Origin: Candidatus Nanohaloarchaea archaeon
GTDB lineage: Archaea > Nanohalarchaeota > Nanosalinia > Nanosalinales > Nanosalinaceae
Assembly (NCBI GenBank): GCA_047617745.1
Contig: JBLGBN010000018.1
Span: 1 to 19,174 of the forward strand
Direction: 5' to 3'
DNA: 19,174 bases
Every line of letters begins with the position of its first letter. Position 1 is the first letter of the stretch. The notes beneath the pieces are model-generated. The model ran no database searches, was not told where the DNA came from, and worked only from the letters and a program-made list of their open reading frames with translations. Shown here in pieces: positions 4,605 to 13,199 of this stretch. Made by a program: the position numbers and the translations under genes.

Positions 4605-4991
4605 CTACCGTTGAGGCTCAAGCATTGATGCAATTTCTCTCGCCTTGCTTTTATCGGGGTTATCGCTCTCCAACTCTGAAATATATTCGTCAGCCATCAG
4701 CATTTTCTCTTTATGGCGGTAGGCGTTAAGACCTCCAAGCACTGCGGCGGTTGCTGCTACTGCTGTGCCTGCAGTAGCTAATTCCCCCAGAAATTCAGCT
4801 CCATAGGCTCCGCTCGCTGCGCTAGTTCCCAGCAGCGTAAGGGATCCTCCCGACCATCCGCCGGCCTTTTTTCTGTAATCGGCTCTGACCTCTTCCAGAT
4901 CATCTACAATTTCGTCGGAAGAGCTGTAAGAGTTATCCAGCTCCCCAATTTCTTCCAGTTCCGAGTTAACAAGTTCGTAAAACTCTGCCAT
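4605..4991 (-). CDS. Hypothetical membrane protein
   Basis: Acidic N- and C-terminal helices flank a Gly/Ala-rich hydrophobic hairpin (two probable TM segments). Confidence 0.7.
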   Translation of the reverse strand: MAEFYELVNSELEEIGELDNSYSSSDEIVDDLEEVRADYRKKAGGWSGGSLTLLGTSAASGAYGAEFLGELATAGTAVAATAAVLGGLNAYRHKEKMLMADEYISELESDNPDKSKAREIASMLEPQR

Positions 4992-5009
4992 ACTGGTCTA
5001 ATAACACTT

Positions 5010-5023
5010 CAGATATTTATCTG
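5010..5023. promoter_or_regulatory. Palindromic putative operator overlapping divergent TATA-like boxes
   Basis: CAGATA-TT-TATCTG is a perfect 6-2-6 inverted repeat in the 51-nt gap between the divergent 4991 and 5043 starts. Confidence 0.45.
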
Positions 5024-5042
5024 TTGTCACTAACTGATAAGC

Positions 5043-5321
5043 ATGAGCAAGATATCATTCAGGGCGGATGAGGACATTGAAGAGCTGCTGGAGGAACAGG
5101 ATGCCTCAAAGAGCGAGGTCATCCGTGAAGCACTCAGAGAGTACCTCGAAGACGGCCCAGAGCATGAAGATATCGAGACAGATCACCTAGATGATATCCA
5201 TACATACGGTATGAAAGGAGAGATAGAGAAGGCCGAAGAAATTATAGAAGGTTACCGTTCAGATGGAAGAGATTACGAAGCCTTTCTGCTTGAAACCACT
5301 TTGGACCAGTACCGGGAATAA
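5043..5321 (+). CDS. Ribbon-helix-helix (CopG-type) DNA-binding protein
   Basis: N-terminal KISFRADEDIEELLEE...SKSEVIREALREYL fits the beta-alpha-alpha pattern; followed by an acidic helical C-terminal domain. Confidence 0.75.
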   Translation: MSKISFRADEDIEELLEEQDASKSEVIREALREYLEDGPEHEDIETDHLDDIHTYGMKGEIEKAEEIIEGYRSDGRDYEAFLLETTLDQYRE

Positions 5322-5983: not shown

Positions 5984-7561
5984 ATGGTTGAATGGAAAGG
6001 CCGTCTGGAAGGAGAAGTAGGAGAAAAAGCGCAGATGCTGGACAGGATTGAGAGGTTTCCGGTGCCGAACTTCTTCGTCATAACTTCTGAGGAACTTGAA
6101 CAGATATTTGGCGGTAAAGCCTCGCCAGAACAGATACTTAACACCAGTATAGGATCCGACCAGAAAAAGGAGATCAAAGACGCCTACAAAGATATAGGCA
6201 TGAGCTCAGAGGTCAGAAACGCAACCGGGCGGGCAAAAAACCTTGTTGGAGGCCAGAGAAACAACCAGCTTGTATCAGTAAGGGCCTCTGAAAACGGCGT
6301 TCATTCAAAATACAGATTGAATGTCGGCTCATCGGATTTATTTGATGCTATAAAACAGGTCTCAAGCTCTTATTACGAGAAAGAACAGGAGCTTCCATCT
6401 CTGGTAGTCCAGAAAATGGTTGAACCCGAGTTTTCAGGCTCTGCAGTAACAGGCAGACACGAGGACCCGGATCTGGTTGAAGTTGTGGAAGGCCTTGGAA
6501 CTTCGCTCGAGGAAGGAGGGAACCAGCCATACTTCTATACCCGGGATTCAGGAGAGATAGACTCGAAAAAGCCGGATGAACACCTCAAAGTCACCCGTAA
6601 CCCGATAAACGGCGGTGATAGAGAGAAAAAGGTGGAGCCGGAGCTACCATTTGACGAAGCCGAAATCAGCGAGCTCCTGGGGAAACTCGACTCCGAAGGA
6701 TTAAATATCAAGTTTGCATACAAGAGAGGAGACTTCCATATAGTAGATGCGTGGAAAGAAGATCCTGAACACGAGGTCCTGAAGAACCCTGAGATACAGG
6801 GCGTCAAAGTATCGGAGGGTGATATAAGTGGAACGGTAGGTCAGGAGATAACTTACTCAGAGGAAACTTTACCTCCTGAAGAATACCGGAAACATCTTGT
6901 GGCTAGAACCGGGGGCTACACCAGCAGAGATGCTGAAAAAGCCCGGGAAGAAGGGAAAACAGCTGTTTTCAGCTTCGCGGAAAGTCTTGAACCTGGTCAG
7001 AGGATAAACATGCAGCAGGAATCACCTGAAAGGAAAAACCGGAGCCAGACCCGGATGGATGGAGGAAACCAGAACAGCTTCCCATTCTCCAAGAATAAGG
7101 AGAGAACTGCTGAAAAACATAGCAAATCTACAGATACAGATTTACCGGACTCAGTGCTTGCGACCCAGGTTCTGCCGCTGAATCCGAGGAATGGGAAAGG
7201 TGTCTTCACCTCACCGCCTTACGGAGAAGGGTATGTCCTGACAGATAGACCTTCAGGAGAGAACGAGTTCTCTCGGGAAAACTATGTGGATAGCTGTGAG
7301 AAAGCATTCCGGTTTGAGGGAGAGAAACTGATGCTGGATGTCAGAAAACTGGGAGACGAGAAGAAGGAAGTTATAGATTATCTTGAAGCCGGCACCAAGG
7401 TCCTGATCGTTGGAAATCCGGATACTGAAACCCTTAGAAAGGCTGTTGATAACGGTTTTGACACGGTTGCCTGCGAGGAACGTTTCATGGAAGGCGTGGA
7501 GACTAAGATGGCGAGAGCTGAAAAGAAGTTTATGGTGGAAAAGCTTCAGGAGCTTGAATGA
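5984..7561 (+). CDS. PEP synthase (pyruvate, water dikinase)-like protein, shortened, catalytic His replaced
   Basis: PPDK_N motifs VGEKA, FPVPNFFVIT, VSVRAS, VVQKMV and EGLG; swivel-domain motif GGYTSRDAEKAREEG (canonical GGxTSHAAIxxRExG); short PEPS-like C-terminus. 525 aa. Confidence 0.8.
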   Translation: MVEWKGRLEGEVGEKAQMLDRIERFPVPNFFVITSEELEQIFGGKASPEQILNTSIGSDQKKEIKDAYKDIGMSSEVRNATGRAKNLVGGQRNNQLVSVRASENGVHSKYRLNVGSSDLFDAIKQVSSSYYEKEQELPSLVVQKMVEPEFSGSAVTGRHEDPDLVEVVEGLGTSLEEGGNQPYFYTRDSGEIDSKKPDEHLKVTRNPINGGDREKKVEPELPFDEAEISELLGKLDSEGLNIKFAYKRGDFHIVDAWKEDPEHEVLKNPEIQGVKVSEGDISGTVGQEITYSEETLPPEEYRKHLVARTGGYTSRDAEKAREEGKTAVFSFAESLEPGQRINMQQESPERKNRSQTRMDGGNQNSFPFSKNKERTAEKHSKSTDTDLPDSVLATQVLPLNPRNGKGVFTSPPYGEGYVLTDRPSGENEFSRENYVDSCEKAFRFEGEKLMLDVRKLGDEKKEVIDYLEAGTKVLIVGNPDTETLRKAVDNGFDTVACEERFMEGVETKMARAEKKFMVEKLQELE

Positions 7562-7646: not shown

Positions 7647-8654
7647 ATGAGCCAGGAACAAAAGCAGGAGCGAGAACAGTATAATTTCGAAACCTTTGAA
7701 GAAGTTCTCGAAGAGATCAAAGATAAGGATTACGACAAGATCGGGCTACAGGGACCAGATGGTATTAAGCCGCAGATCGTGGATTTCGCCTCCGACCTCC
7801 AGGAAGAAGGATTTGAAACAGTAATCGTAGGTGCTTCAACATTTGGGGCGTGCGGAATCGCAGATGAAAAAGTCAAGAGAATGGGGGCGGACGCACTTAT
7901 ACACGTCGGCCACACCAGATTCCTGCACCCTGAAAAGGCCGATATGAAGGATTACGATGTTTTCTATCTTCCGTACAGAGAAGATAGAGATCTGATGAGC
8001 GTCTTGGAAGAGCATTACGATGAGATTCCAGAGGATGAAACGCTGGGTCTTGTAGGTGTGACGCAGTACATGGACCGAGCGGAAAAAGCCCGTGACTTCC
8101 TAGAGAGTAAGGGATACGAAGTTGTTGAGGGCAAGACAGGGCTTCGAACCTCAGAGCCGGGACAGGTACTTGGATGTGACGCAGGCGCGGCACATAACAT
8201 CGCTCACAAGGTAGACGCTTTCGTCTTCCTCGGCTCCGGACACTTCCATCCTTCACAGGTGTCTGAGGCAGGCAAGAAAGTATACGTGGTTGACCCATAC
8301 GAGAAGCATATCTGGGTAGAACCAGCTAATTCGCTTGATGATGAGATGCAGGCAGAGTATGCAAGGGTTTTGAAGCATAAAGACAAGGAGAAGTGGGGGA
8401 TTGTAACCTCTTCCAAGAAAGGACAGAACTATATGAGGGCCGTGGAGATCGCGAAGGAGAAACTGGAGAAACACGGTAAAGACGTCTATGTTTTCGTCGA
8501 GGACCGTATCTTTGAAGCAGACTATAAGGGCTACGGCATCGACATCTATGTCAACTGTGCGTGTCCCCGTATGACCAAGGACTGGCAGGATCTTTCTTTT
8601 GTCAGTCCCCGTGCGCTTCAGGTCCTGGATGACGAGTTTGGAGAAGAAGAGTGA
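7647..8654 (+). CDS. dph2: 2-(3-amino-3-carboxypropyl)histidine synthase (diphthamide biosynthesis)
   Basis: LQGPDG, FGACG, HVGH, GQVLGC, GSGHFH, SKKGQ and ACPR; the three Fe-S cysteines are present. ATG 7647 is preferred over TTG 7626. Confidence 0.95.
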   Translation: MSQEQKQEREQYNFETFEEVLEEIKDKDYDKIGLQGPDGIKPQIVDFASDLQEEGFETVIVGASTFGACGIADEKVKRMGADALIHVGHTRFLHPEKADMKDYDVFYLPYREDRDLMSVLEEHYDEIPEDETLGLVGVTQYMDRAEKARDFLESKGYEVVEGKTGLRTSEPGQVLGCDAGAAHNIAHKVDAFVFLGSGHFHPSQVSEAGKKVYVVDPYEKHIWVEPANSLDDEMQAEYARVLKHKDKEKWGIVTSSKKGQNYMRAVEIAKEKLEKHGKDVYVFVEDRIFEADYKGYGIDIYVNCACPRMTKDWQDLSFVSPRALQVLDDEFGEEE

Positions 8655-8708
8655 TGTTGTCACCTTTTAACAACAACTTATTTATGTGAGTTTTTACAAA
8701 CTATATCC

Positions 8709-9431
8709 ATGAGCTTTCGTGAAATAGTAGAAAGAGCCAGAGAGCAGCAACTGGATGAGGACAATGGCGCTCTTGAAGACAATGAGTCGAAGATTGGAGA
8801 GGGGGCTAATACTTCTGCTCACATCAGCTCCAGAGGTTACGTTGTTAAGCCTGTAGCGTATGAACCTGACTCGGACTCGGAAAACCCGTTTGAACAGGCT
8901 GAAGTGGTAGAAGATATAGATCGTTTTCCGTGGGTAGAGGTGGATGAAAGGGATGTTGATGGTCCATTTAACTATGCTCTTGTAAAGATGAGCAGGAACG
9001 ATTTAACACATTCAGAAGCCGTTGAATCCTTCCATATGTCAGATGTTATAACAGAGGATCTGGACATGTTTTTCGATCTTAGAGAGGATGGCTTCACCTA
9101 TAATGACTTTAAACCAGATAATATAGGCTATTTCTGGGAGAGTGGCGAACCTAAGGCAAGACCTATTGACGTGATTGACAGCCATGCATGGGAACAGGAA
9201 GAAGACCTGCTTTATCGAAGGTTTTCAGATATTTTAGATGTTTACATCCGTGGAACACCTAAAGAAGACGGTCTTGTAGATCTTTATCCGACCTCTGTAC
9301 CAGAGGCTGAGGAGCACGTAATGGAGTATCTAGGGATGGACACAGAAAATATTACAGGTGACCCATACAAGGATCTCTTCCAGGCTATGGAAGAATCACA
9401 GGGAGAACTGGAGGATGTCCTCGCTTACTGA
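8709..9431 (+). CDS. Minimal protein kinase-like (PKL) fold protein
   Basis: Gly loop KIGEGANTSA, VVK lysine, catalytic loop YNDFKPDNIG (DxKxxN) and a DFG-equivalent PIDV, in the correct order. Confidence 0.7.
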   Translation: MSFREIVERAREQQLDEDNGALEDNESKIGEGANTSAHISSRGYVVKPVAYEPDSDSENPFEQAEVVEDIDRFPWVEVDERDVDGPFNYALVKMSRNDLTHSEAVESFHMSDVITEDLDMFFDLREDGFTYNDFKPDNIGYFWESGEPKARPIDVIDSHAWEQEEDLLYRRFSDILDVYIRGTPKEDGLVDLYPTSVPEAEEHVMEYLGMDTENITGDPYKDLFQAMEESQGELEDVLAY

Positions 9432-9480
9432 GTATCTTCAGCGGGATAAAATTTGGTAACAAATTATTAGGTGTGTAGAT

Positions 9481-10191
9481 ATGACATTATACGCTCTGGG
9501 AGACTACCACGGAAGGAGTATACAGGAGTTTCTGGAGAAAGAAGCACCTACTTCCGATGATATAGTTCTATCGACCGGAGATTTTGATCAGACAAATGTG
9601 ATCCATGAGTTTCTTGATTTAAAGGAAAGAATCGGCGAGGAATCAGTAATTGATGTGGGCGGCAACCACGATAACGCAATTCTGGAGGAACTGCCGATCA
9701 CATCAGGCACTATAGAATCCCAGTCCAAGCATTTCTACGAGATGGTCGACGAGCTACATCAGGATCCAGTAGCAAAAGATTATCTTCAGGAAATTGTCAA
9801 TAACCCAATCAGAGAGTTTGAGGTAGGGGATCTGAATGGAGTACTGGTCCATGGAGGACTGGCGGGCCATATACAGAGCCGGAATATAACTGAGGAAATG
9901 AAACCTTTCTGGTACCGGCTCTGGGATGACGAAGATTTCGAGGAAAACTTCGATCGAATGGATAGAAAGGATTACGACTTGATGATCCGGGGACACGACC
10001 ATCGAAAAGACCACGTAATGAGGCTTAAAGACGGCTACGAACCCACCTATCGGAGCCGAAATCTGGAGGAGAGTTATGAGCTGGAAGAAAGTTACAGACA
10101 TATTTTCACTCACGGTGCCTGGTATAAAGGAGAGTATCTGGTCATAGATGAAGATAGTCTTGAGGCAGAGTTCAGATCTGTGGAGAAATAG
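9481..10191 (+). CDS. Calcineurin-like metallophosphoesterase (PPP-type)
   Basis: All five motifs are present: GDYHG, GDFD, GNHD, VHGG, RGHDH. Confidence 0.9.
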   Translation: MTLYALGDYHGRSIQEFLEKEAPTSDDIVLSTGDFDQTNVIHEFLDLKERIGEESVIDVGGNHDNAILEELPITSGTIESQSKHFYEMVDELHQDPVAKDYLQEIVNNPIREFEVGDLNGVLVHGGLAGHIQSRNITEEMKPFWYRLWDDEDFEENFDRMDRKDYDLMIRGHDHRKDHVMRLKDGYEPTYRSRNLEESYELEESYRHIFTHGAWYKGEYLVIDEDSLEAEFRSVEK

Positions 10192-10232
10192 TTGAACCAG
10201 AAGATTTATCTACTGGCGTCCAAATTATAATT

Positions 10233-10520
10233 ATGTCGACGGATACTGTGGACGACGTGGTTTCTAGCTTGACTAATGAGCTCGACTCTTTGATAGAGAA
10301 AGTTAACGAAGAGGAGGAACTGGTTTCCCGGGAAGACTATAACGTAAGAGAACTTCAGAACGGCGATTATGCAATAAGCACTCCAGGCAAGACCTATTTG
10401 ATAAGGGCTGACGGCTCTATTAGCGAGCATAAAAAGGGGAAAACTGCAGAGGCATATGACGGATACGATGAGAGCATAGAGAGCGAAATTGAAGAAATAC
10501 TTGAGGAAAACTACCAGTAA
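10233..10520 (+). CDS. Small acidic hypothetical protein
   Basis: 95-aa acidic ORF with the host-like composition; its 3' end overlaps the convergent oxidoreductase gene by 10 nt. Confidence 0.75.
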   Translation: MSTDTVDDVVSSLTNELDSLIEKVNEEEELVSREDYNVRELQNGDYAISTPGKTYLIRADGSISEHKKGKTAEAYDGYDESIESEIEEILEENYQ

Positions 10521-11707
10521 TCCTTGTCCAGCAGCCTCTCCTTTTCCTCTACTTTTTCTTTCTCTCTAATCATTTCCTTAATCTTTTCCTGCCCCTTCGT
10601 GTAACCTATCATAACTGCTCCAATTAGCCGGTCGCCATCGAAGAATAGCCTGCGGTAGTGATCCTCACCGCCGTACTTCCTCGAGACTGGTTCCCCGCTC
10701 CAGTCACCTATTGCCAGGAACTGCGACCTGAAATGTCCTACACCATAGGTATTAATATAATCAAAATCCTCGTCTGGTCCAGACATGTTTTTACCGGCAG
10801 TTTCCCCCATTTCCTCACTATGATCCCAGGAGCCGTTAACAGTCCTCTTCTCAAAAACAGGGGAATAGTACTCAACCATGTTTCCTGCAGCGTAAATGCT
10901 TTCGTCCGAGGTCTGAAGCTTTTCATCAGTCTTGATGAGGCCTTTCTCAGTCTTTTTAACGTCTACAATCTCCGAGTTCGGTGTTTGCCCGATTGCTACG
11001 GCGACGGCGTCGCATTTGTAACTTTCACCCTGTTCTGTTACCACTTCTTTCACCCTTCCTTCTTCTTCTGATTTCAGTTTTCCTACTCTAGTGTTTGTGA
11101 TTACTTCACAGCCTTTCTCCTCCAGTTTCTCATGGATTATCTCGGCGCCTTCTTCATCAAGGCCGCGACTCCACCAGCATTCATCTTTGACCAAGTAATA
11201 AGTCTCAGCACCGTTTTCCGCATAAGCCATCGCTAAATCAATTCCCAGGAGGCCTCCGCCAACAACCACAGCTTTTTCTGCTTCTTCAGCTGACTCCTTT
11301 ACTGTATCTGCATCATCCATCGTCCACATGTAGTGAAGATTACTGAATCCTTCATCCTGTGGAAGTTTTCTTGGTGATCCGCCTGTGGCGACTAGAAGAT
11401 TATCGTACTCAAAGCTTTCTCCGCCAACAGTCTCCACAATCTGTTTTTCGCTTTCAACTTTGTCTACTCGAGTATCTAAATGTAGATCGATATCTCTTTT
11501 CTCATACCAGCTCTCATCATGAACCCTTGTATACTGTTTAGGAAGCGTACCTTTCATGTAGTTCTTCAGCATAATCCGGTTGTAAAGTGGCTCGGATTCA
11601 TCCGTGAAAACATGTATTTCTGCGTCTTCATTCTGGTTTCTGATAACTTCGGCAGCAGTTGCACCAGCGATACCGTCCCCGATTATAACGTGTTTTTGTT
11701 CTTTCAT
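10511..11707 (-). CDS. FAD/NAD(P)H-dependent oxidoreductase (ferredoxin/rubredoxin reductase-like)
   Basis: IIGDGIAG, YNR, LLVATG, VVGGGLLG, AIG and TSDESIYAAGN motifs; reductase C-terminal domain. Confidence 0.9.
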   Translation of the reverse strand: MKEQKHVIIGDGIAGATAAEVIRNQNEDAEIHVFTDESEPLYNRIMLKNYMKGTLPKQYTRVHDESWYEKRDIDLHLDTRVDKVESEKQIVETVGGESFEYDNLLVATGGSPRKLPQDEGFSNLHYMWTMDDADTVKESAEEAEKAVVVGGGLLGIDLAMAYAENGAETYYLVKDECWWSRGLDEEGAEIIHEKLEEKGCEVITNTRVGKLKSEEEGRVKEVVTEQGESYKCDAVAVAIGQTPNSEIVDVKKTEKGLIKTDEKLQTSDESIYAAGNMVEYYSPVFEKRTVNGSWDHSEEMGETAGKNMSGPDEDFDYINTYGVGHFRSQFLAIGDWSGEPVSRKYGGEDHYRRLFFDGDRLIGAVMIGYTKGQEKIKEMIREKEKVEEKERLLDKDYW

Positions 11708-13124: not shown

Positions 13125-13199
13125 GCGGAGCTGGTGTAGTCTGGCCCATCATATCACCCTGTCACGGTGATGACGCGGGTTCAAATCCCGCGCTCCGCG
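13125..13199 (+). tRNA. tRNA-Asp(GTC)
   Basis: Acceptor stem GCGGAGC/GCTCCGC, anticodon arm TCACC-CTGTCAC-GGTGA, T arm GCGGG-TTCAAAT-CCCGC, discriminator G. No intron, no encoded CCA. TATAAAAA at 13091. Confidence 0.96.

Follow-up and report, generated by a model that had tools for sequence, protein, structure and literature searches.

A kinase-like gene and a metallophosphoesterase gene form a two-gene unit, not a trio, in a hypervariable slot of a nanohaloarchaeal genome (834 kb, 89% complete). The initial annotation had joined these two genes and a gene for a small acidic protein into a candidate phospho-switch; the locus is real and conserved but smaller than that three-part switch, and its function is predicted. 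We tentatively propose, with slightly less than even confidence, that the pair forms an accessory cassette in an exchangeable slot, in which a protein kinase and its cotranscribed eraser would have a role in conflict.

Results

Layout of the locus

Features are given as coordinates in the window, the whole 19,174-nt stretch of DNA that was analysed.

7647..8654, + strand: dph2, the conserved gene that bounds the variable slot upstream (context, outside the cassette)
8670..8685, + strand: putative promoter-like element (ACAACAAC followed by TTATTTAT) upstream of the kinase gene, at about -39 to -24 relative to its ATG
8709..9431, + strand: minimal protein-kinase-like (PKL) enzyme, P0001, 240 aa, of a new nanohaloarchaeal family
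9469..9473, + strand: putative Shine-Dalgarno (SD)-like AGGTG before the phosphoesterase gene, suggesting an internal cistron
9481..10191, + strand: calcineurin-like metallophosphoesterase, P0002, 236 aa, non-PPP, partner of the kinase, assigned by fold and invariant metal ligands
10195..10232, + strand: own promoter region of the 95-aa gene, 37/38 nt identical in G069
10233..10520, + strand: 95-aa acidic protein, P0003, separate slot cargo outside the pair, found at 1/5 pair loci and alone in G069
10511..11707, - strand: FAD-dependent pyridine nucleotide-disulphide oxidoreductase, the conserved, convergent gene that bounds the slot downstream (context)

As first described, the three ORFs (240, 236 and 95 aa) are co-oriented between dph2 and the oxidoreductase gene, with spacings of 49 nt (kinase/phosphoesterase) and 41 nt (phosphoesterase/95-aa gene). 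The identity of dph2 was clear (Pfam Diphthamide_syn, E 8e-60; TIGR03682 above cut-off), and it was matched in 46 of the other 49 genomes of the family; the convergent oxidoreductase gene overlaps the 3' end of the 95-aa gene by 10 nt. Compared to metagenome locus L040, the kinase and the phosphoesterase were under purifying selection (pN 0.15 and 0.16; pS 0.88 and 0.84, saturated), and a single contig from another run covered 8231-10224 with 6 differences; together these results indicate that the locus is no assembly artefact.

The kinase

P0001 had the PKL core that the initial annotation had recognised in gene 1, namely GEGA (30-33), VVK (45-47), DFKPDN (133-138) and a downstream Asp, D154. 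Residues G30, E31, G32, K47, D133, K135, N138 and D154 were invariant in 22/22 aligned sequences, as was P136 of the catalytic loop, and D133 and D154 were invariant in all 27 members of the wider family. The Gly loop, beta-3 Lys, catalytic Asp/Asn and Mg-binding Asp of the PKL superfamily were thus all present, and the predicted PKL fold was borne out by the bilobed kinase fold that we found. The candidate alpha-C Glu is E65 in helix 60-67 (Glu in 17/22, counted from the printed alignment). The DxKxxN catalytic loop of Hanks-type kinases was present and aligned with HRDLKPEN of CaMK1D.

The remark that gene 1 has no visible activation segment also held, as neither DFG nor APE motifs occurred in kinase alignments A1 and A3 and none of the 27 family members matched Pkinase; profile matches stopped near D154. 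Likewise, no transmembrane domain was seen in the kinase: hydrophobic segments were absent from all three proteins, with highest 19-residue Kyte-Doolittle means of 0.41 for the kinase, 0.75 for the phosphoesterase and 0.25 for the 95-aa protein. Since it has no sensor and no activation-segment motif, the kinase probably does not answer to a signal but is controlled through expression, partner binding or an opposing enzyme.

The family is unclassified and invisible to Pfam and NCBIfam, neither of which gave a match for P0001; this included Pfam HipA_C, and HipA was not among the 50 fold matches listed. Profile matches of P0001 were to protein kinases (NleH1, E 0.0011, was weaker than CaMK1D), and in the fold search small-molecule kinases tied with protein kinases. 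Fold and residues suggest that gene 1 encodes a soluble, stand-alone, Ser/Thr-type protein kinase, of which the activity and substrate class are predicted. Kinase relatives were found only within one nanohaloarchaeal family, in 12 of 70 genomes (one marginal), and the named relatives of both kinase and phosphoesterase were all nanohaloarchaea. One kinase relative, P0022, belongs to Ca. Nanohalovita haloferacivicina.

Four genomes had off-slot kinase relatives, with no phosphoesterase neighbour in the regions read; off-slot copies included L105:3759-4436 (-), L035:5821-6498 (+), L034:7306-7923 (+) and L039:7107-7736 (+). Several had an altered catalytic loop, including loss of the loop Lys, or an altered beta-3 Lys, and one adjoined an integrase-like gene. 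A further kinase copy in G050 was interrupted by internal stops.

The phosphoesterase

P0002 scored above the Pfam Metallophos cut-off (E 4e-9) and combined a calcineurin-like fold with binuclear metal ligands; D8, H10, D34, N62, H63, H124, H172 and H174 were invariant in 23/23, in agreement with the claim that gene 2 has all calcineurin-like metal ligands. Its naming as a phosphatase stood only in part, because this metallophosphoesterase is missing the motif-2 Arg of the two-arginine clamp that, in excerpts of PMC8249667, defines PPP protein phosphatases: motif 2 was GDFD in 23/23, with no conserved Arg after it. P0002 shares with lambda phosphatase and PP1 the calcineurin-like fold, metal ligands, catalytic His and HGG, but these PPPs matched it with Z of 12-13, lower than 3RQZ and 1NNW. 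The nearest structures were not PPPs and included SapH and phosphodiesterases; small metallophosphoesterases of the 3RQZ, 1NNW and SapH type were 17-22% identical to P0002, and no sequence-profile match to P0002 was found in the PDB.

An alternative that we regard as unlikely, if still substantial, is that the substrates of the phosphoesterase would be nucleotides or other small phosphoesters (e.g. dinucleoside polyphosphates), with the pair either making and breaking a small phosphorylated metabolite or serving separate arms of a single stress or antiviral response. The absent motif-2 Arg and the nearest structures are consistent with this, as are sub-threshold NCBIfam matches to YfcE (17/23) and ApaH (8/23) among the phosphoesterases and the tie of small-molecule kinases in the kinase fold search, whereas the invariant catalytic-loop Lys and the profile matches of P0001 argue for a protein kinase. 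The phosphoesterase, for its part, carries HGG and RGH motifs and an invariant R146 between motifs 4 and 5, a candidate structural counterpart of lambda Arg162, and its N-terminal third weakly matched phage proteins annotated as Ser/Thr phosphatases (E 0.03-0.05), all of which speak against a small-molecule substrate.

Start signals

SD 5-mers preceded 40% of 173 inner genes of the source genome vs 9% of 246 first genes. A start-region model trained in-sample on these genes, rough and partly reflecting AT content, grouped the kinase and 95-aa genes with first genes and the phosphoesterase gene, which has an SD motif, with inner genes; in this model the kinase promoter-like element outscored 97% of inner genes. 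Most of the 11 slot kinases displayed had a comparable T/A tract equally far upstream. By eye, AGGT/GGTGG-type motifs lay upstream of the phosphoesterase at 4/5 pair loci, the exception being G064, with a TATA-like tract and no SD, and in G027 the kinase stop and phosphoesterase start overlapped. The caveat that each gene has its own AT-rich upstream tract and may be transcribed separately was therefore apt for the 95-aa gene but not for the phosphoesterase, the upstream region of which resembles that of an internal cistron. These signals suggest that the phosphoesterase would be cotranscribed from the kinase promoter.

Recurrence of the pair

The region downstream of dph2 was read in 44 of 50 family genomes, leaving out three with no dph2 match and three with dph2 at a contig end. 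Kinase-family genes lay directly 3' of dph2 in nine of the 44. The phosphoesterase came next in three of these (G000, G064 and G027, representing three genera), was absent in five with both flanks visible, and could have lain beyond the contig end in one; thus, the kinase occurred without it in 5/8 readable genomes. Two further pairs in metagenome loci L040 and L042/L043 (near-identical and counted once) brought the loci read to five, and wherever a close relative of the phosphoesterase was read with its surroundings, it came after a kinase (5/5 loci). Genome-wide, the phosphoesterase profile gave three strong matches in 70 genomes, again G000, G064 and G027, and one additional marginal match that was a different enzyme. 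The phosphoesterase thus showed a one-way dependence on the kinase. The neighbourhood conservation looked for in a trio was found for kinase and phosphoesterase, which recur side by side, and not for the 95-aa gene.

For 13 of 21 kinase relatives, the longest contig was exactly the same size as that of a phosphoesterase relative in a set of 28 (a jitter null averaged 0.06 matches and never exceeded 2 in 20,000 draws), and in four of these 13 pairs the contig left 138-790 nt to spare. For 12 of the 28 phosphoesterase relatives no kinase was matched. Two of 13 more distant kinases also shared an exact contig size with phosphoesterase relatives. Two of these 15 size-matched pairs duplicate directly read loci and the rest (about 13) are putative pairs; they are not independent samples. 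Kinase and phosphoesterase distances correlated over 17 pairs (rho 0.82, after removal of a fragment pair and a probable duplicate), as linkage alone would also produce; the separate trees were poorly resolved.

Linkage without a shared function, whereby both genes arrived in the slot in a single event and have since travelled as a block, is an explanation that we consider improbable. The kinases that lack a phosphoesterase, the accumulation of unrelated cargo in the slot and the TATA-like tract of G064 would fit it, but the phosphoesterase was behind a kinase at all five loci read, G027 keeps it beside a deeply divergent kinase with overlapping codons, and the pair endures across synonymous saturation while third genes change.

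We judge it less probable again that the pair is a strict toxin and antidote, as had also been suggested, with the kinase poisoning its own cell unless the phosphoesterase reverses the effect, as in KKP (excerpts of PMC11341870). Two small, adjacent, patchy and exchanged genes, with the phosphoesterase depending on the presence of the kinase, would suit such a system. Five genomes (one complete), however, had an intact-looking kinase and no close phosphoesterase relative genome-wide (this antidote scan covered the phosphoesterase only), and the putative toxin gene is the upstream one. A toxin that is always accompanied by its antidote was thus not what we observed, and the phosphoesterase is no obligatory antidote.

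Under our preferred reading, the kinase would phosphorylate a protein other than its 95-aa neighbour, and the phosphoesterase, which the kinase could do without, would strip that phosphate, thereby limiting or reversing the kinase effect; the pairing is observed and the chemistry predicted. The writer/eraser part of the original proposal thus gains from the kinase fold, the metallophosphoesterase and the recurrent pair, and loses its 95-aa target. The role in conflict would be antiviral or aimed at the haloarchaeal host.

The small acidic gene

P0003 is acidic and rich in Ser/Thr/Tyr, as originally noted (95th percentile for both D+E and S+T+Y in a crude set of 886 genome ORFs). The other four pair loci had nothing or an unrelated 382-aa gene in its place. 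Its sole clear relative in 70 genomes, a protein 63% identical, lay alone between dph2 and the oxidoreductase gene in the congener G069 (84% complete), which had no kinase or phosphoesterase match; there the 38-nt promoter region abuts the dph2 stop. A weak relative was alone in G047. The claim that the 95-aa protein is a member or target of the module was thus not supported, and the gene is an independent passenger of the slot. From the recurrence of the pair and this independent gene with its own promoter, we infer that the indel unit is kinase plus phosphoesterase, about 8655-10194.

A second acidic family was alone in four genomes and followed the kinase in one (G053, 97 aa); it gave no profile match to P0003 (probability 0.4%). 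It is very improbable that the kinase writes, the phosphatase erases and the 95-aa protein is the target, as the closeness and co-orientation of the genes, the composition of P0003 and the G053 arrangement are outweighed by the solitary occurrences of both acidic families, the conserved promoter and the single pair locus with P0003.

Members of the second family (96-107 aa) included L030:6788-7078, L071:5930-6250, L056:1125-1415, L059 and L072. Both 95-aa alleles (window type and G069 type) co-occurred in runs X2 and X12; they share the promoter and first codons (window 10195-10265), a possible recombination anchor.

The hypervariable slot

The stretch separating dph2 from the oxidoreductase gene (8655-10510 in the window; also seen in loci L027-L081) was hypervariable across the family: in the 40 genomes where both flanks could be seen it ranged from 113 to 5,033 nt, and in eight it held no ORF of 60 aa. 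Cargo comprised at least a dozen unrelated families, many unannotated and enzyme-like, and included nucleotidyltransferase-like proteins, another phosphoesterase, a protease, a glycosyltransferase and a tRNA synthetase. The nucleotidyltransferase-like proteins conserved GG...DxD in 8 aligned proteins from 7 genomes, with AbiEii matches below cut-off. In a published genome, three hypothetical genes between dph2 and a dehydrogenase were transcribed (RPKM 149-910; excerpts of PMC10266531).

Slot kinases formed two groups (support 100/99, 11 rows). Two pairs of congeners, G000/G068 and G064/G065, were sisters on flanking genes, yet each was split across the kinase groups, and trees keeping either pair together were rejected (AU p 9e-6 and 0.002); in a 44-row tree the second group was weakly supported and G027 formed a long branch. 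The simplest reading of this conflict is allele exchange via the conserved flanks; ancient duplication with differential loss could also account for it. Overall, synteny and tree conflict demonstrate that slot content has been gained, lost and swapped between lineages, a pattern expected of conflict genes. We found no viral or phage relative and no terminal repeats at the cassette ends, and the flanks are housekeeping genes.

Other slot cargo was observed as follows. Nucleotidyltransferase-like proteins (alignment A5) occurred in L055, L063, L049, L073, L078, L050 and L032, several with a fixed neighbour gene as candidate toxin-antitoxin-like pairs. Family A4 (300-390 aa; L040:6540-7685, L061:1237-2169, L062:1288-2193, L075:1340-2437, L052:3640-4815) has the motifs EIDLL, GxxxGTxxxLGL and R..E...ID, had no database match, and lies 3' of the pair in L040. 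Kinase-like motifs (Gly loop, VK, D..N, later Asp) were seen by eye in L058:1792-2538 (+), L074:167-913 (-), L069:1084-1671 (+) and L058:1078-1739 (+), the last seemingly split in two ORFs; profile comparison showed no relation of these four to P0001. A 206-aa protein adjoining dph2 (L064:5551-6168 (+)), for which no family match was found, has a YHG motif that we take by eye to be reminiscent of ADP-ribosyltransferases. A class I (Tyr/Trp) tRNA synthetase occupied the slot of two congeners (L052:2412-3614, L054:4063-5265).

Discussion

Kinase-phosphatase accessory modules are already known; the combination of these two families was not found in the literature searched, and the cassette is not described in excerpts of 10.1101/2025.02.15.638363. 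Like KKP, it sets a kinase against a neighbouring phosphatase within an accessory locus, and by analogy it may work like that module. KKP (PfkA/PfkB/PfpC), however, comprises a PP2C phosphatase and two Pkinase proteins that bear CSD and FHA domains, in prophages of Gram-negative bacteria (excerpts of PMC11341870), whereas the cassette has one bare 240-aa kinase without CSD/FHA domains and a dispensable calcineurin-like enzyme, in a chromosomal slot rather than a prophage or mobile element. We thus rejected it as a KKP member.

P0001 also resembles OspG/NleH, minimal kinases without subdomains VIII-XI (excerpts of PMC12756638), in lacking these subdomains. It differs in matching no Pfam OspG model (14% identity), in continuing for about 85 more residues C-terminal to D154, in its archaeal origin and phosphoesterase partner, and in having no known secretion route. 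OspG/NleH matched it with a Z tied with dozens of other kinases (Atlas feature 0.96), and we found no secretion signal or membrane segment in the kinase. Compared to Bud32/RIO, P0001 had 10-15% identity, no family HMM match and scores tied with eukaryotic kinases, and its family is patchy and fast-evolving, not universal.

A bolder and improbable reading is that OspG/NleH-like minimal kinases would serve nanohaloarchaea as interchangeable weapons, housed in a fixed slot and directed at viruses or the haloarchaeal host, and that a cognate phosphatase of non-PPP type would restrain the kinase inside the symbiont. If true, the kinase would be the first of effector type in a DPANN symbiont, the phosphatase would found a new class among protein phosphatases, and more candidate conflict genes could be sought in the slot. 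Little is known of how DPANN symbionts affect their hosts or withstand viruses; host lysis is described for one cultivated nanohaloarchaeon (excerpts of PMC11291902), and the words kinase, phosphatase, toxin and effector are absent from the main text of that paper. Should the phosphoesterase reverse the kinase, protein dephosphorylation would be extended beyond PPP chemistry; should the pair be metabolic or merely linked, it would add two new families to known superfamilies. The enzymes are small, soluble and testable in Haloferax, and the other cargo of the mapped slot is open to screening.

Elsewhere in the window, a 525-aa PEP-synthase/PPDK-like protein (5984-7561 (+); a weak match, to the N-terminal ATP-binding domain only) was always upstream of dph2 and far more divergent than it (36-83% vs 76-95%). 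A tRNA gene (Rfam RF00005) lies at 13125-13199 (+). A second variable slot (4605-5321, at the same position in L027-L043, before a ribosomal protein gene) usually carries a divergent ribbon-helix-helix-type protein.
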